A DNA stretch of 64,000 bases, taken from assembly GCA_013334765.1 (NCBI GenBank), contig JAAXWW010000005.1:28350-92349 (forward strand), given 5' to 3'. Shown here piece after piece: positions 9,312 through 44,412 of this stretch. The position numbers and the translations under genes are program-made. The number at the start of each line of letters is the position of its first letter. The first letter of the stretch is position 1. This stretch comes from Candidatus Moraniibacteriota bacterium. GTDB taxonomy: Bacteria; Patescibacteriota; Minisyncoccia; Moranbacterales; UBA2206. Below the pieces are notes generated by a model. That model did not search any database and had not been told where the DNA came from. It worked only from the letters and a program-made list of their open reading frames with translations.

Positions 9312-9500
9312 CGAACAAAATAACAATAAAAATACCCTAGGACTTGCGCGTTTGCTGAAAAAACTTTTTTCTTAGCCAGAAACAGAAGGCAGTTTCCCAA
9401 GAGTCAAGGTGAGACTACATATAACCCGGACGGATTCCGCACAGCCTCGCGATTTAAAAGGTTTTTGAGGAAAATGCGCGAGTCCTGAAACAATAAAAAT

Positions 9501-10991
9501 ATGCCTGAGAAAAGAATCACCATCGAGGACATACTCAAAAGCGTACACAAGCTCGACGCCAAAAAGGAGGCGCTCATTAGAAGCGCCTACGAAGTGGCTC
9601 TTAAGGCGCATACCGGACAAAAAAGGAAGTCCGGAGTCGAATATATCCAGCATCCCCTTCACACCGCGCTCAATCTGGCAAAGATAGGGCTGGGTTCCCA
9701 CACTATTTCCGCCGGGCTCCTGCATGACGTTCCGGAAGACACCGAAACGACCCTCGAGGAAATAGAAAAGAAATTCGGCAAAGAGATCGCAACGCTGGTT
9801 GACGGAGTGACCAAGCTCGGAAAAATAAAGCTGCGCGGAACCAAAGAGGAGCTCTATCTCGAAAACCTCAGGAAGATGTTTTTGGCTATGGCGTCTGACA
9901 TCCGCGTAGTACTCATCAAGCTCGCCGACAGGCTGCACAACATGGAGACGCTCAGCCACGTCCCGCCGGAAAAGCAGCAAAGGATCGCCATGGAAACGCT
10001 CGAGGTTTTCGCCCCGATCGCCAACCGGCTCGGGATCGGAGAGATCAAGGCCCGGCTTGAAGACCTGTCTTTCAAATACCTTGATCCGGAAAACTATGAA
10101 GAGGTTTCCAAACTCGTCAAGGAACAATACAGCCAAAGGAAGAAATATGTCGACAAGGCCATAAGCGAACTCAAGAAAGAGCTTCTTCGCGAAGGCATCG
10201 ACGTCATCGATATCTATGGCAGGACCAAACACACATATAGCCTGTTCCAGAAGCTCAAGCGCCATGACATGGATATCAATAAGATCTATGACCTGGTCGG
10301 GGTGCGTATCGTCGTTCCGGAGGTGGTCAACTGCTATGAGACGCTCGGAATCGTGCACAAGAAATACCGCCCGCTGGTCGGAAGAATCAAGGACTATATC
10401 TCCCTCCCCAAGCCTAACGGATACCAATCCATCCACACGACCATCTTCGGTCCGGAAGGAAAATTCCTGGAAGTGCAGATCCGCACCAAGAAGATGGACG
10501 ATGAAGCGGAATTCGGAATCGCTGCCCATTGGATATATTCCGAAAAGAAGCAGGCGCTCAAGGATATCTTCTTCAGGAATAAAAAGACCGTCATTCCGGA
10601 AAAGGATATCGCCTGGGTGAGACAGCTCCGGGAATGGCAGAACGAACTCGGAAAAGACGACCAGGAATTCATGGAAAGCCTCAAGATCGATTTCTTTAAG
10701 AACCACATTTTCGCCTTCACTCCCTCTGGCGACATCATCGACCTTCCCGAAGAAGCCAACACTATCGATTTCGCCTATCGGGTCCACAGCGAAGTCGGCA
10801 ACCGCGCCACCGGCGCCAAAGTCAACGGGAAAATGGTCCCGCTGGACTACAAGATCAGGAACGGCGATGTCATCGAAATCCTGACATCCCGCGACCACAA
10901 GACTCCCAGCCGCGACTGGCTCCGCTTCGTGCGCACTTCCAATGCCAAAAGTCATATCAGAAGAATGCTCAAGAAAAAAGGATTGCTCTAG
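9501..10991 (+). CDS. rsh: RelA/SpoT-homologue (p)ppGpp synthetase/hydrolase, short form (HD + synthetase + TGS)
   Basis: The HD hydrolase signature is HPLHTA...LLHDVPEDT. The synthetase motif is YGRTKHTYSLFQKLKRH...DLVGVRIVV. The TGS region is FTPSGDIIDLPEEANTIDFAYRVHSEVG. It is 496 aa with no ACT/RIS C-terminus. Confidence 0.85.
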   Translation: MPEKRITIEDILKSVHKLDAKKEALIRSAYEVALKAHTGQKRKSGVEYIQHPLHTALNLAKIGLGSHTISAGLLHDVPEDTETTLEEIEKKFGKEIATLVDGVTKLGKIKLRGTKEELYLENLRKMFLAMASDIRVVLIKLADRLHNMETLSHVPPEKQQRIAMETLEVFAPIANRLGIGEIKARLEDLSFKYLDPENYEEVSKLVKEQYSQRKKYVDKAISELKKELLREGIDVIDIYGRTKHTYSLFQKLKRHDMDINKIYDLVGVRIVVPEVVNCYETLGIVHKKYRPLVGRIKDYISLPKPNGYQSIHTTIFGPEGKFLEVQIRTKKMDDEAEFGIAAHWIYSEKKQALKDIFFRNKKTVIPEKDIAWVRQLREWQNELGKDDQEFMESLKIDFFKNHIFAFTPSGDIIDLPEEANTIDFAYRVHSEVGNRATGAKVNGKMVPLDYKIRNGDVIEILTSRDHKTPSRDWLRFVRTSNAKSHIRRMLKKKGLL

Positions 10992-11024
10992 CAATCCTTT
11001 TTTTAGAAATATCGGAAAAAATAT

Positions 11025-23471: not shown

Positions 23472-24545
23472 CTATTTCTGCCTTTCCACCATATAGCGGG
23501 CTATTCCCTCTAGGAAAGTCCGCGCCTCCTGATTTTTGAATCCTATCCCTTTGAGAGCTTCCAGCGATTCCGAAACCAGCTTTTCCATGAGCTTTTCAGA
23601 ATACGCGAGCGCGCCGGTCTCCTTGATGAGATTCCTGAAATCTTCCAGGTCGGACTTGGTCAGATCCTTTTTCCCCAAAAGCTTCCTGATTCCGGCAATC
23701 TGCCTTTTGTTCCCGTTCGCTAAAGCCCTTGCCACAAGGATGGTCTGTTTGCCTTCGATGATATCCGATCCGACCGGCTTCCCGATTTTCTTCTCTTCCC
23801 CGAAAACGCCGAGGATATCGTCACGGATCTGAAACGCTTTGCCGACAGCCATGGAATACCTGGAAAACTTATCCGCCAGATCCTTGCCTTTCTTTCCAGC
23901 CAGCGCCGCGCCGAGATGAAGCGGCCCTTCGAAGCTATAGCTTGAGGTCTTGCCTTCATACATATCAAGGATTTCCTTTTCAGTGGCATTCCCCCTCATT
24001 TCCAAATACACATCCTTCATTTCGCCCGGAACGATCTTATAGACTATTTCCTGAAGCTTATCGAGGGCGTCCAGTATTATCTTTGCTGGAAAATCGCTCC
24101 TGAAGATTATTTCGTTGCCCATAGCGGCTGCCATATCGCCCACCAGCATCGCCATGGAATTGCCGAAATGCTCGGCATCCTTCTTCGGGAAATGCCGCTT
24201 GGATATTTTCTTGTACCGTTCGTGGATAGTGTCGACTCCGTGCCGCTTGGCGTCTTTGTCGATTATGTCGTCATGGATCAGAAGAAAGACATGGGTAAGC
24301 TCAATGCTCATCGAAGCCTTGATTATCGCCTCGCCATCGCGGCCGCCCGCCGCCAAATAGCCATAGTATACCAAGGCGGGACGGACCCTTTTGCCGCCGG
24401 ACAGAGTGAAATCCTCAAGCATCTTGAGCGCCTGTTTTGCCAGAGGATCCATTTTTTCTGACTCCTTTATTTTGAGCGAAAAATAATCCCCTAGAAGAGG
24501 ATCGACTTTATCCTTGTAGCTTTTGAGCAGTTCGATTGCGTCCAT
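23472..24545 (-). CDS. Trans-polyprenyl diphosphate synthase (IspA/IdsA family)
   Basis: The first Asp-rich motif is LIHDDIIDKD and the second is FQIRDDILG. The start is taken at MDAIELL to clear the adjacent tRNA. Confidence 0.85.
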   Translation of the reverse strand: MDAIELLKSYKDKVDPLLGDYFSLKIKESEKMDPLAKQALKMLEDFTLSGGKRVRPALVYYGYLAAGGRDGEAIIKASMSIELTHVFLLIHDDIIDKDAKRHGVDTIHERYKKISKRHFPKKDAEHFGNSMAMLVGDMAAAMGNEIIFRSDFPAKIILDALDKLQEIVYKIVPGEMKDVYLEMRGNATEKEILDMYEGKTSSYSFEGPLHLGAALAGKKGKDLADKFSRYSMAVGKAFQIRDDILGVFGEEKKIGKPVGSDIIEGKQTILVARALANGNKRQIAGIRKLLGKKDLTKSDLEDFRNLIKETGALAYSEKLMEKLVSESLEALKGIGFKNQEARTFLEGIARYMVERQK

Positions 24546-24547
24546 AG

Positions 24548-24623
24548 TACCGCGTATGGGATTCGAACCCATGATTTCCAGGATGAGAACCTGGCGTCCT
24601 AGACCGGACTAGACGAACGCGGC
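24548..24623 (-). tRNA. tRNA-Glu (anticodon CTC)
   Basis: The minus-strand read is GCCGCGTTCGTCTAGTCCGGTCTAGGACGCCAGGTTCTCATCCTGGAAATCATGGGTTCGAATCCCATACGCGGTA. The anticodon loop is TTCTCAT and the D-arm is Glu-like. Confidence 0.8.
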
Positions 24624-24840: not shown

Positions 24841-27423
24841 ATGGCAAAAAACGGAGCATCTAAGAAAATATCGCTTCTCGAACCGTCTTTTCGGGATATT
24901 TTGGTTTGCCGCAATAATGACAACAAGCCTTTTCTGGAAGCTTTCCATGCGGAACCGGAGAACGTATCGCTTGAAAAGCTAGGCACCCTTTTCGGATTCT
25001 TCGAAATAACCGACCATTCCGAAGATTCCTCATATATAGTCAACTACCTCATTTCCGTCATCAAGAAGGAATTCTTCCTGCGTCCCGGAAGAGGATCAGT
25101 CGAGAGCTTCGAGGCGGCGCTCCACAAAGTCAACCTCGCCCTTTCGAAACTGGCCGCCCATGAGAACGTGAAATGGATCGGGAACCTCAATTCGGTCTGC
25201 GCGGTCATCGAAAAGAACAACCTCCATATAGCCAGCGCCGGTTCCGGAAACGCCTTCTTCCTCCGATCAAAGACCCTCACGGAACTCACCGATCCATCAG
25301 AGAACTCCGGATCCGCCAATCCCTTGAGGACATTCCAGGACGTATTGTCCGGACGCATGGAAGAAGGCGACAAGATAATCCTGGCAACCCAGAGCATCTT
25401 TGACATCTTTTCCATTGAGGAAATCAAGAAAAGCGCGCTTAAATTTTCGCGCGAGGAATTCGCCCGATTCCTGAACACGGCGCTTGTCAACGAGCTTGAT
25501 TCGGCAACAGTCATTCTGGCCGATATGGACAAGAAAGGGGCCAATGCGTCGGTCGAAGCTCCCGAAAAAGAGGTTATTGAAGAGATGAACGCCTTTGCCC
25601 AGACAACCTATGCCAAGAAACGGGAGACGGAAGAGCCGCATAGAGAAGAGGCGCACATATCCCCCGAAGAGAAAAGCAGGCTGAAAGAAGAGATCCAGGA
25701 GTTGAAAGATGAATTCGTAGACAAAAGGACTGGCCATATATATATCAAGGAAACCGCTCCCGAAGAGGAACAGGAAGAAATACGTTTTCAGGGCAGCTAT
25801 TCGGAAATGCTTGGAAAGATTACGCAGACTGCCGGCACCAAACTGAAGAACCTGAGCGATTCTTCGAAGTCAGCCGCGTCAGGCATGCTGGATTCGAGCC
25901 GCCTACTGCTGGAGAAAGTCAGGAAGAACATATCCAAGAAAAAGGAGGGAAGGATTTCTTCCATCGAATACGCGACGGATGAAACGCCTACAAAAGAAAA
26001 CTATGCCCCGCAGGAAATGGCTGCCGCGGCATCTTTGGCGGCAATAGCCAAAAAAAGCGCCAGCGCTTTGACGCAAAAAGCGAGCAACGCCCTCCGTGAG
26101 GAAAATTTCGAACTTATCTGGAAATCCATCCGGAACGCCTGCGTCCGCTTGGCAGAAAACCTGAAGCCTGCCGCCATAGGAACAAGAAACGCTCTCATAA
26201 GGCTTGCTATTCTCATAGCTACCATCTCGAAAAACTTGGCGCGCATGATAGCGACCGAGGCTTATCCGGCAGCCAAAAGGGCTGTTATTTCGACTATTAG
26301 TAGATTCAAACATGCGCAGAAAAGCAAGCCAGAAACCGCAGTTATCGTCACCGAGAACATATCCGCCCAGTCGGCAAGCAAGGCATCTATTGAGAATTTT
26401 TCCAGAGCAAGAGCATCCCGAACGATAACCCCCCGATCGCTTCCGGCGCGAAGGAAGATGATCCCTGATTTCAAAAAGCTCAGGAATATCATAGGGAAGC
26501 TCAACTATCAGCAACGGCTGTATCTCATCCTTCTCGTGATGGCTTTCTTCATCGTCCCCTATTGGATCGTGAAATTGGAAAACCGTTCCGCCGAAAAGAA
26601 ACCAGCACCCGCTCCGGCAGCCATGACAGAAAGCGCATCATCCATGCTGCCGCTTCAGAATGACAAGAACGTCACCCGTATAGAAAAGATTTCCAAAACG
26701 TATTCCGGAGAAGACATTACCAACGTGATAAACCTGAACGGCAAATTCTTCTCGGTTTCCAAGACCGACATAGTAAGCCTTGAAACCGAAGCCAGATTCC
26801 CGATTCCTGACAATTTCCAAAATGCTGAATTCGCAGCTCCGATGGACGACTTGGGGATTATTTTCCTGATGAAAGGCGGGCGCGTTACGTCCTTCAGCCC
26901 TGCATCCGAGAAATTCAGCGATAACAGCCTGTCCCTTCCGGCAAGCGTCGAAGTGAGAGGGATAGGCAGCTATCTTACCTATCTTTATGTGCTTGACGCT
27001 AAGGCGGGGCAAATCTATCGCTACCCGAGGGCCGAGGGCGGCTTCGGGGACAAATCCGACTGGCTGAAAGATACTCCGAACCTCTCAGGAGCCCAGGATA
27101 TGGCCATCAATGATAACGTCTTCATTATTTCCAATGGCAGGATTATCAAGTTCTTCCGCGGAAAATCTCAGGACTTCTCACCCGAAAAAACCGCTACCGA
27201 GGTCATTCCGGAAAAACTGTATACCAATCCTGATTCCGAGAACATCTATGCTCTCGACACCAAGAACGCCAGAATCGTGAAATATGACAAGGACGGCAAT
27301 CTGGTTTCTGAGTTCTATAACGCTGCAATCGAAAACGCTGACAACTTCAGCGTCGACGAGAAGAACAGCGTCGTCTATTTCTCAACCGAAAACGCGGTGA
27401 ATTCGTTCGGGATGGAGGGATAG
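24841..27423 (+). CDS. Transmembrane PP2C-like (PPM) Ser/Thr phosphatase with a C-terminal extracytoplasmic repeat domain (860 aa)
   Basis: The N-terminal PPM motifs are LFGFFEITDH, NLHIASAGSGNAFFLRS, ILATQSIFDIFS and ATVILADM. A single TM (LYLILLVMAFFIVPYWIV) follows. The C-terminus has repeated units (LYVLDAKAGQIYRY, IYALDTKNARIVKYDKDGN). Confidence 0.7.
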   Translation: MAKNGASKKISLLEPSFRDILVCRNNDNKPFLEAFHAEPENVSLEKLGTLFGFFEITDHSEDSSYIVNYLISVIKKEFFLRPGRGSVESFEAALHKVNLALSKLAAHENVKWIGNLNSVCAVIEKNNLHIASAGSGNAFFLRSKTLTELTDPSENSGSANPLRTFQDVLSGRMEEGDKIILATQSIFDIFSIEEIKKSALKFSREEFARFLNTALVNELDSATVILADMDKKGANASVEAPEKEVIEEMNAFAQTTYAKKRETEEPHREEAHISPEEKSRLKEEIQELKDEFVDKRTGHIYIKETAPEEEQEEIRFQGSYSEMLGKITQTAGTKLKNLSDSSKSAASGMLDSSRLLLEKVRKNISKKKEGRISSIEYATDETPTKENYAPQEMAAAASLAAIAKKSASALTQKASNALREENFELIWKSIRNACVRLAENLKPAAIGTRNALIRLAILIATISKNLARMIATEAYPAAKRAVISTISRFKHAQKSKPETAVIVTENISAQSASKASIENFSRARASRTITPRSLPARRKMIPDFKKLRNIIGKLNYQQRLYLILLVMAFFIVPYWIVKLENRSAEKKPAPAPAAMTESASSMLPLQNDKNVTRIEKISKTYSGEDITNVINLNGKFFSVSKTDIVSLETEARFPIPDNFQNAEFAAPMDDLGIIFLMKGGRVTSFSPASEKFSDNSLSLPASVEVRGIGSYLTYLYVLDAKAGQIYRYPRAEGGFGDKSDWLKDTPNLSGAQDMAINDNVFIISNGRIIKFFRGKSQDFSPEKTATEVIPEKLYTNPDSENIYALDTKNARIVKYDKDGNLVSEFYNAAIENADNFSVDEKNSVVYFSTENAVNSFGMEG

Positions 27424-27426
27424 AAA

Positions 27427-27473
27427 AAGCGGTTCAGACGCAAGCCGCAATGGCTTTCCTGTCTGAACCGCTT
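27427..27473. terminator. Hairpin immediately after the PP2C gene stop
   Basis: AAGCGGTTCAGAC and GTCTGAACCGCTT form a 13-bp stem with a 20-nt loop. No clean T-tract follows. Confidence 0.4.
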
Positions 27474-27493
27474 AAAAGCGCAATCTTCTTCGC

Positions 27494-27664
27494 TCATATT
27501 CTCACTTCCCCCGTTTCTTTGAGCATGATCTTCTCACCCATTCGGGATTCCGAATGTTCCCAGGGATTGATTTCATAAACTTCCACCAATCCAGCCAGGA
27601 TGCGCATGGCCATGCGCAAATCAAGAATGCCTTCGTCAGCTAAACCCATCATGCTTTTTGCCAT
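27494..27664 (-). CDS. Possible small protein (57 aa), uncertain
   Basis: MAKSMMGLADEGILDLRMAMRILAGLVEVYEINPWEH... starts at an ATG with a GGAAG about 9 nt upstream. The rest of the long track ORF (to 27979) is Cys/Trp/Arg-rich and not protein-like. Confidence 0.25.
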   Translation of the reverse strand: MAKSMMGLADEGILDLRMAMRILAGLVEVYEINPWEHSESRMGEKIMLKETGEVRI

Positions 27665-28042
27665 TTTCTCATCTTCCGTGTTTCTCCTTGAAAGATACTG
27701 TTTGACTGAAAAAACAGATCTGCCCATGCGAGGCATGGGCTTATGGAGCACAAACGCAAAGAACAGCTCCAAGTCACAACGCCTAATGGAAAAAATCCCA
27801 ATGAGGCGTAGAGCAAAAGACCATACTACGATGACAGGGCAGGCTTTGTGTTCCAGCCAGGTTATTGTCCCGGCACACACAGCATGTCCATCCGGCATTG
27901 CGGTTCCTCTCATGAATCTCATGACAATACTCCGTTGTTTGGGGTGAAAACATATATACACCAAAGAACCTAGCCACAATATACAAGGATGCTTTCAATA
28001 AGTCAAGAATTGTTTTGAACAACTTCAGTGCTTCTGCGTATG

Positions 28043-30511
28043 TTATATGACGCTCCGCATTCCGGCTCTGGTCATGATTTCGCGCTCAACGAGATCGCGG
28101 TCGCGGCCGTATTTGAAACGGGAAAGCTCCTTGAGCGCATTGGCGATTTCCTGATTGCCCTTGATCGGAGGGAAAGTCGCCATGTTGAAAGGCTTGGTGA
28201 GCGCGTTATCGATGAGGATTCTGGCAAAGCCGTTATAGTTGTCCACATTCACCAGGTCTTTGGCACTGAAGGTCGGAGCGAACTGCTTTTCCAGGAACTC
28301 AGCGTCCTCAGGGCCGACCCTGAAAGCCACCATCGATCCCACATTCCCGAACACCGCCTTGGAAATCTCCTCCTTGAGCTGAGCGATGAACTGATGCGCC
28401 AGCACCAGGCAGAGCCGGTATTTCCTGGCTTCGGAAAGAATCTGCGAGATGGAATTGGTCGTGACATTCTGGAATTCATCGAGATAGAGATAGAAATCCT
28501 TCCTCTCATCCTCCAGGATATCGGCGCGCGAAAGCGCTGCCATAAGGATCTTCCCGACAATCACCATCCCCAAGAGGCGCGCATTGATCTCGCCTATCTT
28601 CCCTTTGGAAAGAGCAACCAGAAGGATCTTCTTGCTGTCCATGATATCTCGGAAATCAAGCGTGCTCTTCTGCTGGGCGATGATCGGGCGCATCATATCG
28701 TTTGATATGAAAGGCGTGAGTTTCGAGGTGATATAAGGAACCATGTTGGCAAGCGAGGCTTCGCCGCCGGCCTTTTCCGCTTCCTTGGTCCAGAAATCGA
28801 CTACGATCGGATTCTTGCATTTCTTGAGTTTCATGGCGCGGAAAGATTCATCGGAAAGCACTTTTGGGATTTCCATAAGCGTCGATCCGGATTCGGGATC
28901 ATCCATGACAAGGAGCATGGCGTTCCGCATATACTGCTCGAACATCGGTCCTCCGGTCGCTTTCAAGTCATAGAGCTGGTCGAATATCCCGATCATCTCA
29001 TTGATAACGAAGGTCTTGAGTTCCGGCCTAGTTGTGTCATATTCAAGCATATTCAGCCCGAAGGGACGCTCCGTATCGGCCGGATTGAAAACAATTACAT
29101 CTTCGGCTCGCTCTTTCGGAATAGCAGTCAGGATATCTTCGATAGCATCCCCGTGCGGGTCAATGAAGCAGAAACCGCGACCGTCCCTGGCATCCTGCTT
29201 CGCCATTTCCTGCAGGAAATTGGATTTTCCGACTCCGGTCTGTCCGATTGCATACAGATGGCGCCTGCGGTCTTTCTCTGAAATCCTGATAGTAGTCTTC
29301 GTTCCGCGATAGTCGTTGTATCCAAGGGTTATTCCCTCAGTTGGAATATTTATCGGCGGAGGGGAAGCGTTGGATTTCAGCCATTTGATTTTCGGCGTTT
29401 CCGTGGTCGAAATGGGAATATGGTATATGCTGGCAATTTCCTCATTGCTGAGCGTTATGGATTCATCCGATTTGAAATTGCGGAAAATGAAATCATAAGC
29501 GATTTCCTTCTTATCCATCCTTTTGACTTGGAAGTAGTTTATGTCGGAATTCTGGTATTGCGAAAAAGCGTTTTCGAGATGGCCTAGGATTTCCTGGGCA
29601 CGTTCCTGGGTCTTGGCCGAAGCGACCAGGCGGATATTGACACGGAATCCGCTTTTGACGCTCTTCCTCTCGATGCTCTTCACCAGTTCCTGTTCTTCCG
29701 GCGTAAGCTGGACGACCGTCTTCTCAAAAGATTGCTGATCTTTACCTTCGTGCGCGATAACCCCGGAGATGGCGCTGCCCACTTCGCGACCGACTTTCAG
29801 CATGAAGTGTCCCGTGACATCCTTGAGCCGTTTGCCTTGCTGCATTTCGTGCGCGATGCGCTTCCCTTCGCTTCTCCAGCCTGTTCCGGCGGGAGCAAGA
29901 ACCAGCTGGATAGCTGCCCCTTCTTCGACAGTGTCCAGCTTGCTTATGGCGTTAGTAATAGCGTTCAATGGGTCTATTTCCAGATCCTCATAGGTTTTTA
30001 TCGGCAAGGCATGGCTTTCCTTGAGGATTATGATCGACGCCTCAGTGAAGCTTCCAGGAGAAAAAACGCTATAGTCGCCGCATTTCTCCAAGACTGCGTT
30101 CGGGAAATAGCTGTGGATCTGCTTTTCAACGCTCTCGCGGAATTTCTTGGGAATGGAAATAAAGAATATTATCTCTTCGGAATCGGACGAATTGGCTATT
30201 TCGAAAGAAATGCTCGGAGAACCATATATCAGCTTCTTAAAGAATCCCTTCTTGTCCTTCATCGAAGAAAGCGCCGTAAGAAGCTGTTCCATGGCGCCTA
30301 TTTCGTCTTTCCAAGTCTGCTTCTCCCTACTGCTGTCTTCGGGCCTTATTTCCATCTTGGAGACACGGATAATATCCAGATCGAGATTCATCGACTGGTT
30401 TATTTGAGAGCGGAAAGAAACGAATCCATTGATGATAGTCAGGGCGCCCAGAATAAGCGTTGCCAGTCCGGAAACGACAAGAATCGGAATCAGGATAATA
30501 TTGATGTCCAT
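28043..30511 (-). CDS. Fused N-terminal membrane domain plus FtsK/HerA-VirB4-like (DUF87-type) ATPase (822 aa)
   Basis: An N-terminal TM is followed by a domain homologous to the 3388-4662 product. The ATPase has Walker A AIGQTGVGKS, FIDPHGDA and Walker B FYLYLDEFQNV. Confidence 0.8.
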   Translation of the reverse strand: MDINIILIPILVVSGLATLILGALTIINGFVSFRSQINQSMNLDLDIIRVSKMEIRPEDSSREKQTWKDEIGAMEQLLTALSSMKDKKGFFKKLIYGSPSISFEIANSSDSEEIIFFISIPKKFRESVEKQIHSYFPNAVLEKCGDYSVFSPGSFTEASIIILKESHALPIKTYEDLEIDPLNAITNAISKLDTVEEGAAIQLVLAPAGTGWRSEGKRIAHEMQQGKRLKDVTGHFMLKVGREVGSAISGVIAHEGKDQQSFEKTVVQLTPEEQELVKSIERKSVKSGFRVNIRLVASAKTQERAQEILGHLENAFSQYQNSDINYFQVKRMDKKEIAYDFIFRNFKSDESITLSNEEIASIYHIPISTTETPKIKWLKSNASPPPINIPTEGITLGYNDYRGTKTTIRISEKDRRRHLYAIGQTGVGKSNFLQEMAKQDARDGRGFCFIDPHGDAIEDILTAIPKERAEDVIVFNPADTERPFGLNMLEYDTTRPELKTFVINEMIGIFDQLYDLKATGGPMFEQYMRNAMLLVMDDPESGSTLMEIPKVLSDESFRAMKLKKCKNPIVVDFWTKEAEKAGGEASLANMVPYITSKLTPFISNDMMRPIIAQQKSTLDFRDIMDSKKILLVALSKGKIGEINARLLGMVIVGKILMAALSRADILEDERKDFYLYLDEFQNVTTNSISQILSEARKYRLCLVLAHQFIAQLKEEISKAVFGNVGSMVAFRVGPEDAEFLEKQFAPTFSAKDLVNVDNYNGFARILIDNALTKPFNMATFPPIKGNQEIANALKELSRFKYGRDRDLVEREIMTRAGMRSVI

Positions 30512-30543
30512 TTATGTTATTGTTTTTCTTTTTTATTTTTCTC

Positions 30544-31014
30544 CTATATCTCGGTTATGAGCCCTTTCCTGACTAGCGCGTCATGCAGATCCGCAGAAAG
30601 AAGCCTGTCATGAAGCTCGTCGAGAAGATAGTTGTCTTCCATATGGCGCGCCACCTTCACGGCATGGACGACGCCTTTCGATTCGGCGATGCTAACCAGC
30701 TTTTCCAGCCTGCTCTCGTAGTCTTTCATTTCACTCATCTCTTTAGCATCAGAAGACACATTGCTGGTAGATGAGGCTTGCGGAGCGTCGGAAGGAACCT
30801 TGGAAAGGATCTTGGAATATGCCGCTTCCTTTTCCGCAGCGCCTTCCTTTCTTTCCGCGTTCGTTTCGGGAAGAGACGGCGTTTCAGCATCCAAAACAGC
30901 CTCGCTGGGAAAATCGATATTTTCTTTCTTGGCGGCTGCTCCTGGCAGGAATTTGTCTTTCAAATCCAAATCGCTTTCATCGATCGGTTCCAGATTAGAT
31001 TTTATCGGTTCCAT
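30544..31014 (-). CDS. Hypothetical acidic protein (156 aa)
   Basis: It is in the operon directly upstream of the fused ATPase. It is E/D/S-rich with a helical C-terminus. Confidence 0.5.
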   Translation of the reverse strand: MEPIKSNLEPIDESDLDLKDKFLPGAAAKKENIDFPSEAVLDAETPSLPETNAERKEGAAEKEAAYSKILSKVPSDAPQASSTSNVSSDAKEMSEMKDYESRLEKLVSIAESKGVVHAVKVARHMEDNYLLDELHDRLLSADLHDALVRKGLITEI

Positions 31015-31036
31015 ATTTTTCAGTTAATTATTGAGT

Positions 31037-31348
31037 TTATGCTTTTTTCATTTCCGTCTTGAATTCGTCGATGATGCTTCTCACCATTCCGTCATAATCG
31101 GCGATCTTTTCCCTGAGAAATATCTCTATTTTATCGGGACCCTCTTCGGCATCGATCATTTTCATGTATTCCTCTTTGTCCCCCTCCGAAAGTTTCGCAA
31201 GAGACTCCGAGAATATCCTGCGAAGGACGACTTCGGTCATCTTTATGAGAAGCTCGTCCTGCTTGTCCTTGGAAAGCTCGGAAAGACCGAGCTCTTCTAT
31301 GAGAGCGTTGCGCGCTTCGTCCTGATTAGGTTGTCCATTATTTCCCAT
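31037..31348 (-). CDS. Hypothetical small helical acidic protein (103 aa)
   Basis: In-operon ORF with 22-nt spacing from its neighbours and charged helical composition. Confidence 0.5.
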   Translation of the reverse strand: MGNNGQPNQDEARNALIEELGLSELSKDKQDELLIKMTEVVLRRIFSESLAKLSEGDKEEYMKMIDAEEGPDKIEIFLREKIADYDGMVRSIIDEFKTEMKKA

Positions 31349-31369
31349 GTCGTTTTAAGATTAGTATAT

Positions 31370-34009
31370 TTATTGTAATTGTATTCCTTTGCTTTTCATT
31401 ATCATGCCTATCACTCTGGTTGTCCAACTACTCAGCCTCTCCCCGTCCTTAGGTTCGAATACTTTCCCTCCTGGAGCCGCTAACAATGACCTGTATACCC
31501 CGATAACCTTCTCCCCACTGCCGTTCGACACTGGGTCATCGAAAAGCTCCTTGGCTGTTATGTTCTGCATCTGCTGGAACGAACCTATGCGGGTATTGTC
31601 TCCCAACATGCTGATACGGTATCTGGAGAACATCTTCTTGATAAGCTGGTTGTGATACTCTTTAAGCCTCAGCATTACCGCTTTGGCTCTTATGTTTTCT
31701 TCCATGCTCATTTTGGCATCTGTCAGCCTATCAAGCTCGGCAGAATCTCCATGCAAAGCATGCTCTGAAACGATTTTCTGATCTATTTCGCCTAATTGGA
31801 TTCTCATCGCATTGATATCGGTTTTTTCTATGCCAGGATTATGAGATAATATATTGTTTATTTTCCCTGATACTTCATGGTATCTATAAATGTCACGACC
31901 GACAGATCCGGATAACCCGAACTGACCGTCAATACGGTTCACGTCTTCCACATCCATTCCCATGATTTTTCCATGAACTTCGCCTGTTTCAATATAATGG
32001 TTTCCAACCCCGGCATTATTAGGAGCACCGTCATGAATGCCAGCTGCAGCCTTTTCATCAGGAGTGGCAAAAGAAAAATAAGGCTTTCCATCCGCTCCCT
32101 TTTCGATCCAGCCCAAATGCTTGTCACCGGTTATTCCCATTATCCCTTTGCCATCCGGAGTAAGATGTATTTTTGTTCCTTCATGCACTAGACTGAAAGC
32201 TCCTTTCGGTAAATCATGCTTTTGGGCAAATTCGACAGCCATTCTGTGCGCCCTTCTTCCAGCTTCTTCTTTGCTAACACCTTGGGATGTAAGATGCTTA
32301 ATCAGGTTTCTTTCAATGCTTCCTCCTTTCCCGATCGTTATTTCAGCCCCTTTTGGAATTTCAGCAGTCGAAGCAATCCCGGGACCGGATTCCGGAACTT
32401 TCGGTATGCCGGAATGAATCGGCGAATCGCTCTGCAAATCCGGCGCCTGATACGAACCGTCCGGAAGACGCGCTCCGTGTCCATGATTCCGTATATCGTA
32501 TTCTTTCAGCTTGCTATATATTTCCTTAGCTCCTGGTCCTGGTTTCACTCCTGGCGTTTCGGTGCCATGAACGCCTCCCTGGATTTCAGGCTTCATAGCA
32601 CCATCATGCGAAGGATGCAACTTCGGCATTCCGGCCTTGACTGCATGATCCGCATTCAATCCTAAACCGTTCACGACTTGAAATATTGCTGAGGCTCCGA
32701 TAGCTCCGCCAACAATCCACCCGATCGCCTTCCTGCTTCCTGATTTCCGCACTTCGCGCTTGAGGCTTTCGTCATATGTCTTGATTTCATTCCTCAATGA
32801 TCCAGCAAGGACATTGAATTTTCCTTCCAGATCATTGACATCCATTTTAGCCAGCTCTTCAAGCATTTTATTCTTCTCTTTCTCGGCTTTTTTCGCGTCT
32901 GACAAGCGCCTCATATTCTTCTGGGTCTCCGCTATTCCGACTCCAGCCGCCGCGCCGCCGATTATTTTCTGACCGAATCTGGCCACTCCCGCAACAGTAG
33001 CGACTGAAGCAACCCCGGCAAATCCTGCGCCCAATCCGATTGCGAAAATACCAGCAGAAGCAGCGACCTTCTGTTCCCGAGGGAGCTTCTTGTACCACTC
33101 CACAACTTGCACTCCCCTTTCCCAAACCTTATCTTTCCAGCTCTTGTCCTTGCCGTCTTCATCGGCCTTGAGGTCGGATTTAGCCCTAGTACGGGCATCG
33201 AAGAGATTGTTATTCTCTTCCAATTTGAAATACATGATCAGCTTGCCGATTTCATCCTCCGCCTCTGTGCCCGTAGCAATCTTTCCAGCTTGGCTTTTCG
33301 ATTCGATGCCGTCATACTTCGATCTTAATGATTCCACTTGGAAGCTTATAAGCGCATTAAGCGCGGCTTGATATTGGTTGTATTCATCAGTCGTGCCGGC
33401 TAAGGTTTCGGATGTGGTTTTGACATAGCGCAGCACTCTGTTCATCATCGACAGCTTTCTGCTCATTTCCAAATCTTTCGCAGCATATGCCGCTCTGGTC
33501 GATTCGACATTCTGCCTGAGCATCTCTAGTTCTTCTGCTCTTTTTTCCGCTTCGCTTTTTTCACCTACCGCTTCACTGTCAACCGGCTTATCTTTATTAT
33601 TGTCCTCCATATTCTTTCCGGTGAACTCTCCATCGTCAGATATCCCTGAAAATTTCCTGAGCCATTCCTCCTTGCTCATTGATTCTCTCGGTTTTTCATC
33701 ACTATTATCAGCCACCGGTCCGCGCGAAAAATCTTCCAGCCACTGCCTTTTCATTTCCTCTTGATTATCTGGATATGAATCTTCCGGTTTTTCTTCTTGA
33801 GGCTCCTGCTTATTATCCTCGGGCAATTCATTTTTTTTCAATTCCAGACTTCCCGGTTTTGCCGGTTCGCCATCGATGGCAGAGTTCTCTGTCGCATTCC
33901 TGCTCTTCATCTCATTCAATCTGAGATTCCTTTTTCGAGCCATTTCATTCTCTTTTGCGAGTATTGATTTTGTTGCTGCCTCTGGATCAAACATTATTTT
34001 TATTTTCAA
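31370..34009 (-). CDS. Large hypothetical membrane protein (879 aa) with two Gly-rich TM segments
   Basis: The N-terminal third is acidic and coiled-coil. The TM-like segments are AASAGIFAIGLGAGFAGVASVATVAGVA and AIGWIVGGAIGASAIFQVVNGLGL. It has a Gly/His-rich C-terminal domain and I recognise no family. Confidence 0.6.
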   Translation of the reverse strand: MKIKIMFDPEAATKSILAKENEMARKRNLRLNEMKSRNATENSAIDGEPAKPGSLELKKNELPEDNKQEPQEEKPEDSYPDNQEEMKRQWLEDFSRGPVADNSDEKPRESMSKEEWLRKFSGISDDGEFTGKNMEDNNKDKPVDSEAVGEKSEAEKRAEELEMLRQNVESTRAAYAAKDLEMSRKLSMMNRVLRYVKTTSETLAGTTDEYNQYQAALNALISFQVESLRSKYDGIESKSQAGKIATGTEAEDEIGKLIMYFKLEENNNLFDARTRAKSDLKADEDGKDKSWKDKVWERGVQVVEWYKKLPREQKVAASAGIFAIGLGAGFAGVASVATVAGVARFGQKIIGGAAAGVGIAETQKNMRRLSDAKKAEKEKNKMLEELAKMDVNDLEGKFNVLAGSLRNEIKTYDESLKREVRKSGSRKAIGWIVGGAIGASAIFQVVNGLGLNADHAVKAGMPKLHPSHDGAMKPEIQGGVHGTETPGVKPGPGAKEIYSKLKEYDIRNHGHGARLPDGSYQAPDLQSDSPIHSGIPKVPESGPGIASTAEIPKGAEITIGKGGSIERNLIKHLTSQGVSKEEAGRRAHRMAVEFAQKHDLPKGAFSLVHEGTKIHLTPDGKGIMGITGDKHLGWIEKGADGKPYFSFATPDEKAAAGIHDGAPNNAGVGNHYIETGEVHGKIMGMDVEDVNRIDGQFGLSGSVGRDIYRYHEVSGKINNILSHNPGIEKTDINAMRIQLGEIDQKIVSEHALHGDSAELDRLTDAKMSMEENIRAKAVMLRLKEYHNQLIKKMFSRYRISMLGDNTRIGSFQQMQNITAKELFDDPVSNGSGEKVIGVYRSLLAAPGGKVFEPKDGERLSSWTTRVIGMIMKSKGIQLQ

Positions 34010-34035
34010 CTATTTGGATATTCAAATTGGCATTT

Positions 34036-36018
34036 TCAAAAAAACAAGAAATCGAGGTCATTAGACTTGATTAGCCTTTTAATTGCCAACTCGACTCTTT
34101 CCTCGCTATTGAAATGCCCTTCTTTGACCATCTCTGCTTTTAATCTTCGAAAATATGCCCTGATGTTGATATCCGCCAAATCACCAGCATCGTCAGGATC
34201 ATAGCCGAACCCGGACCAGTCCATACCTCTTATATGTCCGATCATCTCTTTCACGCCTTCTTCATATATATCGCATATTTCGATTTCTTTTTGCGTCAGC
34301 ATTTCCTTGAACAAATCAGCATTCCACTCTTGCAATTGCTTGAATGAAATTATCTTCGGAATTGATTTTATTTCGTCTCCGGATCGATTCTCCACTACAA
34401 CCATTCCTGATTCTGTATTCACTGCAGCAATCCGCCATCCTTCTTCTCCAGCGACCTTCACATCGATTGTTCCTCCGTTCTCAATATACGTCCTGATTTC
34501 TTTCAAATATTCCTCTTCGCTTGATCCTTCAAATGAACCATTTTTAAACACGCTATCAATCAATGCAGAGGCATCGCTTTCTATGGTTTCCTTTCCGCGT
34601 GTTCCGTCATTGCCCAGGTTTTTTTGATCTGGTTCGGCGGCAGCGACTTCATCTTCATGGGTTCTTTCATTTTTAACTGATGGTTGATTTTTTTCTGGAA
34701 TCGCGACAGGTTCAGGCATGGATTTCTCAGCTCGTTCTTTTGCTTCTTTTTCCAGGGCCGCCTTGAGTTCAGGATTGATTTCTCCTCCCGACAAAGTCTT
34801 CATGAATTCTTCCATTGTCACGTCAAGCGGCTCGCTGTCATTCGTGTCTCTTAGCAGATAGTTACCGCGAACATTGATCATTCCGCGAGGAACGATCCCG
34901 TCGTCTATTTTTCTTTTATGATATGAGTAGAATTTGAATTGATCTTCCCCCGGGCTCCAAATCAGATATCCGTCATAGCCTCTGTATCTAGCCGCTAATT
35001 GTCCGACATTTTCCGCGCGATTAACCTTAGGATACCCATTCTCCTTTTTTGTATCGATAAGCACTTTATGATCGCCGCCTACATCCAGAACAAATCCTTT
35101 TTTCTCTAATTCTTCAATTTCTGCCTTGGCTTCTTTCTTAGCCTTCTCCAGCTCTTCGCTGCATTCTGAAAGGGTTTTTCTTCTAGCCTTCCCATTACCG
35201 ATTGAACAATTGTTATTGTTCAAATAGTACTCATCAAGAGGATCGGCCGGATTTCGGCGAGGCCGTCTCCGGAACAGCGCCAAAATTTCGCTGGTATCTA
35301 TTTTATTGCGCAATCCGTACAGATTCTTGTGATAGTTATCAAAAACTTTTTTCAGCTCCCTATCAGAATAATTTTCATTATCACACTTGGTCACAAATTC
35401 CACAAACCGATCCAAGTATTCCTCTTTTTTCAAAATGCCTTCCCTGACTAACTCTTCGTAGAAATACTTTGCGGCTGAGGTGTCCTTGTCTGAATCCTTC
35501 CCGTGATGGTCATCTATGTATATTTTCCCAGCTTCTCTGGTAGCCGTTCCATCTACACCGCCGGAATCAAAGATGGCTCCGCTTTTGACTGTATCCCCCG
35601 GGAAAACATAACCCAGTTTTATTTCCTGGTCTTTCAAATCTATTCCGGCTATTCTGAGTATTTCCAGACAGCTTCTACCATCAAGATCCGTAAATTTTAG
35701 CAATGACTTTTCACCTGTTTCAGGATCAATTCTTACGATTCCATGAACGGATATTTCTTTCCATAAATGCGTGAATAATTCCTTGAGTCTTTCTTGCTTT
35801 TCCTCTTCCGTGCCACCAAGCTCTTCCTCGGAATCTAGTTCCACTCCGAAATCGTTCGCTAATTTATTAAGCAAATAAAAAGTATGTTGGACCAAGGGAC
35901 GATTAGCAGCCTCTTCTTTTGCAAACTCATATCCTTTCAATCCAACTTCTTGCTTCGGCTCTTTTTTTTGCGCTTCGCCTGCGCTTACGCTGCCAGAGCT
36001 ACTTACTGTCTCTTTCAT
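34036..36018 (-). CDS. Hypothetical 660-aa protein with DHH-phosphoesterase-like motifs; first gene of the operon
   Basis: KFTDLDGRSCLEIL resembles DHH motif I (DxDG). GKIYIDDHHGKD resembles motif III (DHH). VLDVGGDHKV is a possible GGGH-like motif. The C-terminal half is unassigned. Confidence 0.55.
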   Translation of the reverse strand: MKETVSSSGSVSAGEAQKKEPKQEVGLKGYEFAKEEAANRPLVQHTFYLLNKLANDFGVELDSEEELGGTEEEKQERLKELFTHLWKEISVHGIVRIDPETGEKSLLKFTDLDGRSCLEILRIAGIDLKDQEIKLGYVFPGDTVKSGAIFDSGGVDGTATREAGKIYIDDHHGKDSDKDTSAAKYFYEELVREGILKKEEYLDRFVEFVTKCDNENYSDRELKKVFDNYHKNLYGLRNKIDTSEILALFRRRPRRNPADPLDEYYLNNNNCSIGNGKARRKTLSECSEELEKAKKEAKAEIEELEKKGFVLDVGGDHKVLIDTKKENGYPKVNRAENVGQLAARYRGYDGYLIWSPGEDQFKFYSYHKRKIDDGIVPRGMINVRGNYLLRDTNDSEPLDVTMEEFMKTLSGGEINPELKAALEKEAKERAEKSMPEPVAIPEKNQPSVKNERTHEDEVAAAEPDQKNLGNDGTRGKETIESDASALIDSVFKNGSFEGSSEEEYLKEIRTYIENGGTIDVKVAGEEGWRIAAVNTESGMVVVENRSGDEIKSIPKIISFKQLQEWNADLFKEMLTQKEIEICDIYEEGVKEMIGHIRGMDWSGFGYDPDDAGDLADINIRAYFRRLKAEMVKEGHFNSEERVELAIKRLIKSNDLDFLFF

Positions 36019-39696: not shown

Positions 39697-40542
39697 TCAT
39701 TCCAGCCGTTTTCTGTTTCTGCCTGATGCCAAGAAATTATTTCCGGTCACTACGCTTTTTCCGGTTTTCTGTTCAAGCGCGGTTCTCGCGTCCTTAGCGA
39801 TCCTGCCGCCTTTTTTAGCTGGAACCTTATTCTCTTCCAAACCTTTCGCCTTCATTGTTTCGGCGATCTGCCGGGTCGAAAGTTCAGCCAGGGCTGTGAA
39901 GACCAATTCGGCGTCCGACATATGATCGCGCAGATTATGAGTCTTGAGTTTTTTCAGATTCTTATGCTCTTTGATGGTCAGGTCGCTCCATTCTTGATGG
40001 ATTATATTCGTCAGAATCGCGAATTCATCTTTCTCTTGAACATCGTTGTTTTTCCAATAGTCCGTCAATTTGTTCCTGACCTCCTGCCCCATCATCCTTT
40101 GCTGGATCCATTTCTCGCTCCGGCCCATCTTCAGCCAATATTCCCTCGAGCGATTCATCGCCTTTTCCGGATCTGACATTTCCTGAATTCGCTCATAGCC
40201 GACTTTCGCCAGCCACAGTTTGATCGGTTCGGCTTTTTTGGATGGAACCGATTGGATCAAGCGCAGAATCGTTTCGGTATTCGCAACATCAGTCTTATAG
40301 AATTTACCATCGGCAGATTGCAATTTCAGTTTGTCACATTTTGTGACAGACTCATTTCCTTCTTTTTTTAAGCGATTCTTAAGAGTTGTCCAATAACTTT
40401 GCGCTTTCTTGAAATCTTTCTGCTCAATCAACGCTGCCACGATATCGATCACCGAAAAATACCAAGTTTCGGTTTCTTCATCGTAGTGCCGGCGAATCTT
40501 GAAATTCTCAAAAATCGCCAATGAGTCCTTTTCCTTCGCCAT
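39697..40542 (-). CDS. DinD-like (DNA-damage-inducible protein D family) protein with an N-terminal Bro-N-like domain, paralogue 1
   Basis: The N-terminus AIFENFKIRRHYDEETETWYFSVIDIVAAL is Bro-N-like. The central KAEPIKLWLAKVGYERIQE and C-terminal KNLKKLKTHNLRDHMSDAELVFTALAELSTRQI parallel E. coli DinD (KGLKKNQKILDHMGSTELAANLF). Confidence 0.75.
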   Translation of the reverse strand: MAKEKDSLAIFENFKIRRHYDEETETWYFSVIDIVAALIEQKDFKKAQSYWTTLKNRLKKEGNESVTKCDKLKLQSADGKFYKTDVANTETILRLIQSVPSKKAEPIKLWLAKVGYERIQEMSDPEKAMNRSREYWLKMGRSEKWIQQRMMGQEVRNKLTDYWKNNDVQEKDEFAILTNIIHQEWSDLTIKEHKNLKKLKTHNLRDHMSDAELVFTALAELSTRQIAETMKAKGLEENKVPAKKGGRIAKDARTALEQKTGKSVVTGNNFLASGRNRKRLE

Positions 40543-42446: not shown

Positions 42447-43600
42447 ATCCCAGATTTTTGCGCCTGATTTGCCGCTTTTATCTTTTCCAAATATTCCAAG
42501 ATGTTTTTCTTGAACTTCTCTTTCGAAAATTCGTTCGCCTTGTTCCTGATCGCTTCCCTGTCGTAGCCTTTCTCGTTTTCAATGAATCTCCTCACTCCGT
42601 CAGCGATCACTTCCGGAACCGATGAGGCAAAGAACTCTCCCGTCTTGCCCTCGACAATCACTTCTCTCATGCCGCCTTTCCTGATCGAAAGGACCGGAAC
42701 GCCATATGACATAGCCTCGACCGGTGCGATTCCGAAATCATCCACTCCCGGAAAAACGAAGGCGCGCGCATTGCTATATATCTCTCCCAGCTTTTCATCC
42801 GGAACGAACCCGGCGAAACGTATATTCTTCCCAGCAATCGATTTCAGGTATTTTTCCTGTTCGCCTGTCCCGACCACCACCAGTGGCAGCTCCAGCTTAT
42901 TGAAAGCCTCGATTGCCGCGTCGACCTTCTTGTATGCCGACAGGCGGGAAACGATGAGGAAATAATTATCCTTGATGTCTCCTGCTCCTTGCTTGCCCAC
43001 CGTAGTCCCGCTTAGCGGGACGAAGGCGGGTGGATAAATGACTTCGGAATCCCTGCCATAATATTTCCTGATACGGTCCCGGGTATATATCGAATTGGAA
43101 AGCAGAAGATCCGGCCTATCGGAAGCGACGCGGTCCCAGACGCGGATATAGTTGAGGATGAAGCGGGTGATGAAGCGTATGCATCCCAAGCGGCTCCTTT
43201 GATTGAGATATTCCCCATTCATGTCCCAGATGAAGCGCATCGGGCTGTGGACATATGAGACGTGGGTCGTGTTGAGGCGCGTCACGATCCCCTTTGACCA
43301 CGCTCCGGAGCTCGAAATGACCAGATCGAAATCCCTCAGATCGAAAGTCTCCGGCGCGACCGGGAGGAACGGCAGCAGCCATTTCTTCCTCTTCTTGAGA
43401 AAGGCGGGAAATTTCTGCAGGAAGGAAACACGCACGTCCTTTGATCCGAATCTCTCCCCTAAGGCATTTTTGTCATATATGAGGGTATATATCGGCGCGT
43501 CCGGAAAAATCTCAGACAGAGCCAGAAGGACCCTTTCTGCTCCTCCGAACTGAGTCAGGAAATCATGCACCAAGGCTATTTTCAATTCTTTTTTGTTCAT
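42443..43600 (-). CDS. GT4-family glycosyltransferase
   Basis: The GT-B C-terminal motif is FVFPGVDDFGIAPVEAMSYGVPVL (E-x7-E). Confidence 0.85.
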   Translation of the reverse strand: MNKKELKIALVHDFLTQFGGAERVLLALSEIFPDAPIYTLIYDKNALGERFGSKDVRVSFLQKFPAFLKKRKKWLLPFLPVAPETFDLRDFDLVISSSGAWSKGIVTRLNTTHVSYVHSPMRFIWDMNGEYLNQRSRLGCIRFITRFILNYIRVWDRVASDRPDLLLSNSIYTRDRIRKYYGRDSEVIYPPAFVPLSGTTVGKQGAGDIKDNYFLIVSRLSAYKKVDAAIEAFNKLELPLVVVGTGEQEKYLKSIAGKNIRFAGFVPDEKLGEIYSNARAFVFPGVDDFGIAPVEAMSYGVPVLSIRKGGMREVIVEGKTGEFFASSVPEVIADGVRRFIENEKGYDREAIRNKANEFSKEKFKKNILEYLEKIKAANQAQKSGI

Positions 43601-44412
43601 TCCAGCGGGCTTTTTATGTTTTTTAGCATCGGATTGGTCACTTTGGTATAGATCTGCGTTGTCCTAATATTAGCATGACCCAGAAGTTCCTGCACATAAC
43701 GGACGTCCACCCCGTTTTCAAGCAAATGCGTCGCGAAACTGTGACGCAAGGAATGGAAAGTGGCCGTTTTTTTGATCCCCGCTTTTTTGAGCGCGTTTTC
43801 AAAAACCTTCTGGGCTGTTCGTTCGGTCAGTTTGCCTCCCCTTTCACTGCCAAAAACATAGTCATTCAAATTTTTGCTTCCGATTATTTTTCCCAAATCC
43901 CCAGCCAGCTTTTCCGGGAAAACGGTTATGCGGTCATTATTGCCCTTGGCTCCTTTGATATGGATCGTCAACTCCTGCAAGCCGATATCTTTTACTTTCA
44001 AATTAACAACTTCGCTGACTCGCAAGCCGCCGGAATATGCCAGCGCAATCATCAGCCTATGTTTCTCATTGCTTATGGATCCCAGAAGCACCCTGATTTC
44101 ATCCCTGGACAGCACGATCGGCAGCTTGCTCGGAGTTTTGGCGAATCTGATATCGATTTTCCCCTGATATTTCAAAACACTCCGACAAAAGAAATTGATC
44201 GCTTGCAGGCTCTGATTGACTGTCTGCGAAGACATCCCTTTGTCAATTTTGATCAAGAGGTGTTTCTTGATGAAATCCTCATCCACTGAATCGAATCCGC
44301 ACCGCTTTTCACGCAAATAGTCCGCCACGCAAGCAACATAGCTTCTGACTGTTTTAGGGCTATACTTCCTCAATCTCAATTCATCCTCCAGTTTTTTCAA
44401 ATAGACCTCCAT
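43597..44412 (-). CDS. Tyrosine site-specific recombinase, XerC/XerD family
   Basis: The catalytic residues are RVSEV, HSLRHSFATHLL and LLGHANIRTTQIYTKV (R...H-x-x-R...Y). Confidence 0.9.
   Translation of the reverse strand: MEVYLKKLEDELRLRKYSPKTVRSYVACVADYLREKRCGFDSVDEDFIKKHLLIKIDKGMSSQTVNQSLQAINFFCRSVLKYQGKIDIRFAKTPSKLPIVLSRDEIRVLLGSISNEKHRLMIALAYSGGLRVSEVVNLKVKDIGLQELTIHIKGAKGNNDRITVFPEKLAGDLGKIIGSKNLNDYVFGSERGGKLTERTAQKVFENALKKAGIKKTATFHSLRHSFATHLLENGVDVRYVQELLGHANIRTTQIYTKVTNPMLKNIKSPLE

Follow-up and report, generated by a model that had tools for sequence, protein, structure and literature searches.

The DNA analysed here (the window) is a stretch of 64,000 nucleotides from a Candidatus Moraniibacteriota bacterium (contig JAAXWW010000005.1, positions 28,350 to 92,349 of the forward strand). 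It carries a complete open reading frame (ORF) for a protein of 860 amino acids, which is the subject of this account, and, converging on it, a gene cluster that includes a TraD/VirD4-like ATPase (Table 1). The same protein is deposited at NCBI from a metagenome-assembled genome (MAG) of a Candidatus Moranbacteria, where it is annotated "hypothetical protein." From the N-terminus it consists of a domain with the PPM/PP2C protein phosphatase fold, a long charged linker, a single transmembrane helix and a propeller of the NHL type. This order had been proposed by a sequence-only reading of the window and is borne out by structure prediction with AlphaFold2 (AF2), by Foldseek and by hydropathy; the strings of residues which that reading quoted are all present in the protein. 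The base composition near the ORF is not unusual. Searches of Pfam, NCBIfam, PADLOC and, with phmmer, of PDB using the entire protein gave no significant match.

Table 1. The 860-residue protein, its parts and the adjoining gene cluster. Positions are those of the window; aa, amino acid residues; KD, mean Kyte-Doolittle hydropathy; pLDDT, predicted local distance difference test score.
Feature	Position	Strand	Basis or remark
Complete ORF, 860 aa, single-pass membrane protein	24841..27423	+	100% identical to NCBI HGB08_03945
PPM/PP2C-fold domain, predicted cytoplasmic (aa ~10-231), metal-ligand set incomplete	24868..25533	+	AF2, Foldseek, hhalign
Charged low-complexity juxtamembrane linker (aa 232-556, 325 aa)	25534..26508	+	AF2 pLDDT 50-60
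Linker motif 1, N-A-F-(S/A)-Q-x-x-(F/Y) (aa 250-257), N250 invariant	25588..25611	+	Alignments
Linker motif 2, F-V-D-K-(K/R)-T-G-H-I-Y-I-K-E (aa 292-304)	25714..25752	+	Alignments
Semi-hydrophobic linker helix (aa 444-470)	26170..26250	+	Hydropathy, KD 1.51
Transmembrane helix (aa 560-579), conserved in relatives	26518..26577	+	KD 2.19
Pro/Ala-rich stalk, predicted extracytoplasmic (aa 580-610)	26578..26670	+	Low pLDDT
Six-bladed NHL-type beta-propeller, predicted extracytoplasmic (aa 611-857)	26671..27411	+	AF2, Foldseek, profile
TraD/VirD4/TrwB-like ATPase (T4CP/HerA-FtsK superfamily), 822 aa, N-terminal transmembrane segment	28043..30511	-	Convergent neighbour
Remaining cluster: 156-aa protein, DUF5663 (103 aa), 879-aa membrane protein, 660-aa protein	30544..36018	-	Recurrence

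The full-length relatives that were collected number more than 211 and measure 680-950 aa, and those with names are all labelled Moranbacteria, Parcubacteria or Patescibacteria; a relative is encoded in 158 GTDB species genomes, which bear the labels Moranbacteria or Parcubacteria. When the N-terminal domain was used as the profile in an exhaustive search, 2163 clusters (50% identity) were found at E<=1e-3, the distant members of which have almost no taxonomy in their cluster records, and 404 at E<=1e-30; the 150 top clusters share a layout of 700-900 aa. In alignments the N-terminal ~230 residues are very conserved, the linker is variable, and the transmembrane helix and the C-terminal ~250 residues are again conserved. 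We read the protein as one of receptor type that spans the membrane once and is specific to Moranbacteria within the Patescibacteria, or candidate phyla radiation (CPR). Many MAGs with the Moranbacteria-type gene and its neighbourhood (loci L008, L021, L026, L029 and others) are titled "uncultured Bdellovibrionales bacterium," which suggests that these titles are taxonomically wrong.

The PPM/PP2C-fold domain and its metal ligands

AF2 models residues 10-230 with a pLDDT of ~90-96 as a central beta-sandwich with a helix pair on either side, the arrangement that defines the PPM fold. When this model was compared with PDB, Foldseek returned 155 matches at E<=1e-3, the 50 best of which are all PP2Cs with a probability of 1.0. 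The best match is PstP of Mycobacterium tuberculosis (1txo, E 5.8e-12; target-normalised TM-score of 0.70 for 2cm1), followed by tPphA, PppA (6jkv, E 2e-11), Stp1, SpoIIE (5mqh, 5ucg) and plant PP2Cs, those from PstP to SpoIIE spanning E values from 6e-12 to 1e-9. Among the top matches the target-normalised TM-score is 0.6-0.7 and the identity 11-17%.

A relationship was also found at the level of profiles. Using hhalign, a profile of 124 sequences of the domain aligned with a small PstP alignment (the PstP sequence being checked against 2cm1) over residues 82-199 and PstP 65-206, with a probability of 83.7% and an E value of 8e-6. The alignment pairs GDKIIL with PstP GDRYLL, NPLKTF...SG with HPQRSL...TG, and a KNN hairpin with AGN; because these are known PP2C landmarks, the domain is, as judged from profile and model, a true though very diverged PPM/PP2C homologue. 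The result is convincing solely with the 124-sequence profile, since a shallow profile against the single PstP sequence reached a probability of just 3-5%. Retrieval of PstP homologues for a diverse PP2C profile gave only actinobacterial sequences that are 72-100% identical; greedy extension of the alignment was unreliable over residues 1-80, and global hhalign was unsuccessful. The window protein has no match at E<=1 to the Pfam PP2C and SpoIIE families tested (PF00481, PF13672, PF07228), and neither NCBIfam nor PDB sequence searches linked it to PP2C; the same is true of ten distant relatives. When 30 relatives were compared with Pfam, PP2C appeared in four (best E 0.02) and SpoIIE in two, all below threshold, and a whole-length profile reached TAB1 (2pop) in PDB at a non-significant E of 0.97.

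The metal-binding positions were compared with PstP, and residues were counted by column in 124 relatives. The equivalences of PstP D191 and D118 lie inside the confidently aligned region; those of D229 (D220 here) and D38 (D58) were placed by extended alignment and AF2 strand register, and that of D25 (N41) by strand register only, so that it is "most likely" rather than firm. At PstP D25, D38, D118, D191 and D229 the window protein has N41, D58, S135, Q184 (followed by S185) and D220. Only the D38 and D229 equivalents are thus kept as Asp, and two to three positions of the canonical set (motifs 1, 2, 8 and 11, with D118 for the third metal) are not Asp. Across the family, position 41 (the probable D25 equivalent) is Asn in 123 of the 124 sequences, and position 58 is Asp in 101 and Glu in 18. 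Position 135, corresponding to the third-metal ligand D118, is mostly Asn, Thr or Ser. Position 184, that of the motif-8 M1 ligand D191, varies widely (E 24, D 23, K 21, P 19, S 13, and others), as does position 185, equivalent to PstP G192 (E 49, S 28, D 22), and position 220 is Asp in 58 and Glu in 51. In five of the 124 sequences positions 58, 184 and 220 are all Asp and so form a strict triad. At position 36, the expected register of the phosphate-binding Arg (PstP R20, PP2Calpha R33), the residue is V, I, E or H, mostly V or I, in a region where ~45 N-terminal residues cannot be confidently aligned. The invariant residues N41, N68, W112, G134, R142, P161, F165, G171 and D177 are not canonical metal ligands, a pattern which is usual among pseudoenzymes, and helices alpha1 and alpha2 are the most conserved part of the family.

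All known PPMs require two metals or more; TAB1 and PHLPP2, from which ligands are absent, are inactive (PMC12002173). RssB of E. coli is a bacterial PP2C-fold pseudophosphatase (PMC6546054), and RssB, TAB1 and PHLPP2 all lack catalytic Asp (PMC6546054, PMC12002173). The window protein likewise combines a PPM fold with the absence of part of the catalytic Asp set. With D191 replaced by Q184, D118 by S135 and the probable motif-1 Asp by Asn, its phosphatase activity is therefore doubtful. The sequence-only reading had placed PP2C motifs in the first ~225 residues and had described a transmembrane signalling phosphatase; the fold and the architecture stand, while the motifs are degenerate, escape Pfam and put catalysis in question.

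To judge from these residues, a pseudophosphatase or an atypical site appears more likely than a standard enzyme, and a pseudophosphatase or adaptor role is favoured because the metal-ligand set is incomplete. For the protein as a whole we lean, by no great measure, towards a receptor with an external NHL propeller and a catalytically impaired phosphatase, pseudophosphatase or adaptor domain. Several observations weigh against this. D58 and D220 are present, and in PstP the substitutions D38G and D229G abolish more than 90% of activity (PMC3052367). In 87 of the 124 relatives positions 58 and 220 and at least one of 184 and 185 are all acidic, and the conserved E40, E61 and D62 lie close to the site and could rebuild a non-canonical metal centre. 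The equivalences of motifs 1 and 2 come from strand register and not from confident alignment or coordinate superposition, and a few relatives are named PP2C or PrpC by PGAP or JGI. The link to the ATPase cluster, described below, is one of synteny between convergent genes that are not co-transcribed, in a single lineage.

An active receptor-type PP2C Ser/Thr phosphatase, in which a propeller ligand modulates the dephosphorylation of cytoplasmic phosphoproteins as in PstP, is a possibility that we regard with some doubt. It accords with the PPM fold and true PP2C homology, with the annotations just mentioned and with the precedent of the PstP architecture (PMC3052367), and the retained D58 and D220 might be completed to an unusual metal site by the conserved N41, E40, T164 and D62. 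An acid is present at 184 or 185 in 103 of the 124 relatives, but the window protein is one of the minority, having neither Asp nor Glu there. The ligand columns shift freely among Asp, Glu and other residues, unlike those of active PPMs, the probable R20 position (a tentative equivalence) is hydrophobic or variable, and the domain falls below Pfam detection. A cognate kinase or partner-switch module, for which the sequence-only reading had suggested a search, was not found: translated in all six frames, the window and 87 related loci, a survey of the neighbourhood and not of whole genomes, contained no Hanks kinase motif (HRDxKxxN...DFG), and no partner-switch module was found in the same DNA.

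Linker, transmembrane helix and propeller

The linker was described from the sequence as rich in Lys and Glu, and its composition agrees (Ala 13.8%, Glu 11.4% and Lys 10.5%, with 31% of residues charged); it is predicted to be disordered, and among relatives it ranges from 139 to 407 aa in length. Two short motifs stand out from the otherwise variable sequence. The first reads N250-A-F-S-Q..F257 in the window protein. In the second, FVDKKTGHIYIKE (residues 292-304), H299 and Y301 do not vary among 74 sequences; T297, G298 and I300 are at least 90% conserved, distant relatives included. The spacing T297-x-x-I300 is like that of the phospho-Thr site pTxxI bound by FHA domains, a resemblance in sequence which we offer as speculation; AF2 leaves this motif undocked (pLDDT ~55).

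The transmembrane segment of residues 560-579, LYLILLVMAFFIVPYWIVKL, has a mean Kyte-Doolittle value of 2.19, and the string LYLILLVMAFFIVPYWIV (residues 560-577) marks the sole segment of the protein in which the 19-residue mean is at least 1.6. There is no signal peptide or other N-terminal hydrophobic signal. Exactly one segment at or above the same threshold is present in 69 of 80 relatives, in agreement with the single helix originally proposed. Within 15 residues of the helix, Lys and Arg number on average 3.6 on the N-terminal side vs 2.4 on the C-terminal side in these 80 proteins; they are more frequent on the N-terminal side in 52, equal in 18 and more frequent on the C-terminal side in 10. 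An orientation with the PP2C-fold domain inside and the propeller outside, as suggested earlier, is plausible and is the best reading of these data, which amount to a prediction. The stalk that follows the helix is 21-34 aa long in relatives.

About 100 residues ahead of the transmembrane helix lies a second, semi-hydrophobic and semi-conserved helix (residues 444-470), which may be membrane-peripheral or re-entrant. It is unlikely to be an obligatory transmembrane segment because it is absent from short family members; in most others it contains charged residues. A different topology, in which this helix crosses the membrane or residues 560-579 are peripheral, would place both globular domains on the same side. 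In a few relatives (e.g., P0077 and P0085) the region is transmembrane-like, with a value of 2.1-2.2 compared with 1.5 here, but its loss from short members, its charges and the count of single-segment proteins given above all speak for one crossing, and it is implausible that a facultative transmembrane segment should move a conserved domain from one side of the membrane to the other. We consider such a topology highly improbable.

For the C-terminal region, in which the sequence-only reading had recognized propeller-like repeats, AF2 predicts 24 strands arranged as six four-stranded blades (pLDDT 94.3, predicted TM-score 0.88). Foldseek matches this model to the Pizza6 designs, to the NHL domains of TRIM2, TRIM3, Brat and Thin, and to the ectodomain of the M. 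tuberculosis kinase PknD, with E values from 3e-11 to 3e-9 and TM-scores of 0.6-0.73; for PknD (1rwi) the E value is 2.6e-9, the target-normalised TM-score 0.72 and the root-mean-square deviation 3.5 Å. The whole-length family profile searched against PDB gives a weak sequence match to PknD as well (E 0.007-0.015), and Pizza is also matched weakly. Pfam NHL does not match the window protein and is faint in three of 30 relatives, and the NCBIfam ScyF NHL model scores an E of 6e-4, far under its cutoff. On the predicted structure, the domain is a six-bladed propeller of the NHL type. It contains a patch of invariant residues, Y711-T713-Y714-Y716...Q724-I725-R727-P729...G734-F735-W741.

Gene neighbourhood and possible function

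The convergent ATPase that had been pointed out beside the gene is present, and it shows weak similarity to TrwB, TraG-D, TraD, VirD4, CedD and HerA, that is, to type IV coupling proteins (T4CPs) and related ATPases; its relatives bear the Pfam domain DUF8128. The 879-aa and 660-aa proteins of the cluster have no matches. The convergent arrangement, with the genes that follow the ATPase, was seen in all five homologous contigs inspected. In a survey by tblastn of 80 species-level loci, of which 61 were informative because they extend 6 kb or more downstream, the ATPase is encoded downstream on the other strand in 55 of the 61, at a median gap of ~1.7 kb and sometimes with unrelated genes inserted. 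The polyprenyl synthase gene upstream is kept in just 10 of 52 loci. Within a single lineage, these counts make a good case for a conserved neighbourhood with the ATPase cluster. The linkage of PstP to Hanks kinases, FHA proteins and cell-division genes has no parallel here, where the neighbours are polyprenyl synthases and the T4CP-like cluster.

The five genes of the cluster (28043-36018, -), which recurs across Moranbacteria genomes, are followed by two divergent PMT_2 glycosyltransferase genes. The convergent intergenic gap (27424-28042) is unusually long at 619 bp; in relatives it measures ~250 bp or is occupied by small unrelated genes. It contains an unsupported ORF of 161 aa (27494..27979, -; no Pfam match) and a terminator-like hairpin (27740-27722, -). 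Rfam and terminator scans of the region 24.4-28.2 kb gave a tRNA only, with no riboswitch or leader.

In a receptor with an impaired or adaptor-type PPM domain, the reading we prefer, the external propeller would bind a ligand, as has been proposed for PknD, or would cluster, and the signal would be relayed through the transmembrane helix and the linker. This relay might alter the binding partners of the PPM-fold domain and of the linker motifs, or any residual activity. Instead of hydrolysing phospho-Ser/Thr efficiently, the PPM-fold domain would serve to bind a partner and might still hold one metal, and the likeliest target would be the adjoining TraD/VirD4-like ATPase cluster. A more specific proposal, that a host or cell-surface cue sensed by the propeller acts through a dead PP2C domain whose binding is independent of phosphorylation, or through phospho-docking at T-G-H-I, to control a CPR-specific TraD/VirD4-like translocation apparatus, we rate as unlikely. 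Should it prove true, episymbiotic Patescibacteria would gain a contact-gated switch for secretion or DNA transfer.

The same synteny could be read in structural terms, the protein being mainly a structural or adhesive component of the envelope whose propeller binds the cell wall or a host surface and whose PPM domain docks the TraD/VirD4-like apparatus with no signalling. The strong association with the ATPase cluster, the very high degree to which helices alpha1 and alpha2 and both linker motifs are conserved, which is consistent with protein-protein interfaces, and a stalk and propeller typical of surface-exposed binding domains are all compatible with this. The interaction, however, is a putative one, between the products of convergent genes that are often split by unrelated insertions, and the poorly conserved linker, so variable in length, argues against a rigid role. 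Such a purely structural function seems quite unlikely.

The layout itself is not new. The sequence-only reading had likened the protein to PrkC-type sensor kinases with the enzymatic sign inverted; this is no novel logic, as comparison shows with PstP (Rv0018c), in which a cytoplasmic N-terminal PPM domain, a juxtamembrane linker, a single transmembrane helix and an extracellular C-terminal domain follow one another in the same order (PMC3052367). PstP differs in having all of D25, D38, D118, D191 and D229 together with R20, in an ectodomain that is not an NHL propeller, and in its kinase/FHA/cell-division operon; identity is 11-17%. The propeller is PknD-like: in PknD (1RWI), a Ser/Thr-signalling protein, a six-bladed NHL propeller likewise lies C-terminal to a single transmembrane helix, but where the window protein has a PPM fold in the cytoplasm, PknD has a Hanks kinase; identity is 13%, and Pfam NHL is not reached here. 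The C-terminal domain of RssB, TAB1 and PHLPP2 resemble the N-terminal domain in being PPM-fold binding or adaptor modules with part of the catalytic Asp missing (PMC6546054, PMC12002173), but they are soluble, with no transmembrane helix or ectodomain, and the inactivity of the window protein is a prediction from its sequence. SpoIIE of Bacillus subtilis is a membrane-tethered PPM with an alpha1/alpha2 "switch" (PMC6546054), formed by the same helices that are most conserved in this family; it has 10 N-terminal transmembrane helices, no ectodomain and an intact metal site. As a working analogy we consider PpkA/PppA of Pseudomonas aeruginosa, an envelope-sensing Ser/Thr pair including a PP2C that switches a neighbouring type VI secretion system. 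PppA is, however, a soluble canonical PP2C, the sensor there is the kinase PpkA, and here no kinase or FHA protein was seen nearby, the neighbour being the TraD/VirD4-like cluster.

What sets the protein apart is the combination of a PP2C fold with an NHL propeller, the degenerate site, the restriction to CPR and the T4CP-like neighbourhood. Our literature searches found no report of a PP2C-NHL receptor and nothing on DUF8128 or on PP2C in Patescibacteria. These bacteria have reduced genomes and depend on contact with a host, and to our knowledge almost nothing is known of their signal transduction. A large and uncurated family, invisible to Pfam, that couples a propeller to a PP2C fold and is syntenic with an ATPase cluster is a concrete candidate for the means by which such cells sense their environment and control an envelope machine. 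Some of its members have been automatically named "PP2C family serine/threonine-protein phosphatase" despite their incomplete catalytic set. If they are active, the receptor phosphatase design of PstP extends beyond Actinobacteria, and an unusual metal site is tolerated.

Other features of the window and related loci

The window is otherwise an ordinary CPR chromosome, with genes that include topA, dprA, parAB, hisS, relA/spoT, uppS, a polyprenyl synthase, mreB, murA, ftsW and glycosyltransferases. A tRNA-Glu(CTC) gene (24547-24623, -) lies just upstream of the gene for the PPM-propeller protein. Because the longest ORF of the polyprenyl synthase (23472..24572) reaches into this tRNA gene with its 5' end, the synthase probably starts at the internal Met of MDAIELL. 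A second TrwB/TraD/VirD4-like ATPase, shorter at 642 aa (1423-3351, -), ends in a treble-clef zinc finger of the form CxxC-x17-CxxC and adjoins genes for a 424-aa protein without matches and a sigma-70 r4/HARE-HTH protein. A long ORF at 9372-10994 (-) overlaps another on the opposite strand at 9501-10991 (+); the latter encodes a RelA/SpoT homologue (HD_4, RelA_SpoT, TGS), and the former, of 540 aa and without matches, is a shadow ORF.

Genes for two proteins with a Bro-N domain and for a tyrosine integrase lie at 39697-40542 (-), 43597-44412 (-) and 45679-46509 (+), in a stretch of lower GC content (0.41-0.44 at 44-50 kb), and this region may be an integrated mobile element. In one related locus (L007), an RVT_1 reverse transcriptase (374-1765) is encoded beside a bAvd gene ~8 kb upstream of the homologue, the signature of a diversity-generating retroelement.

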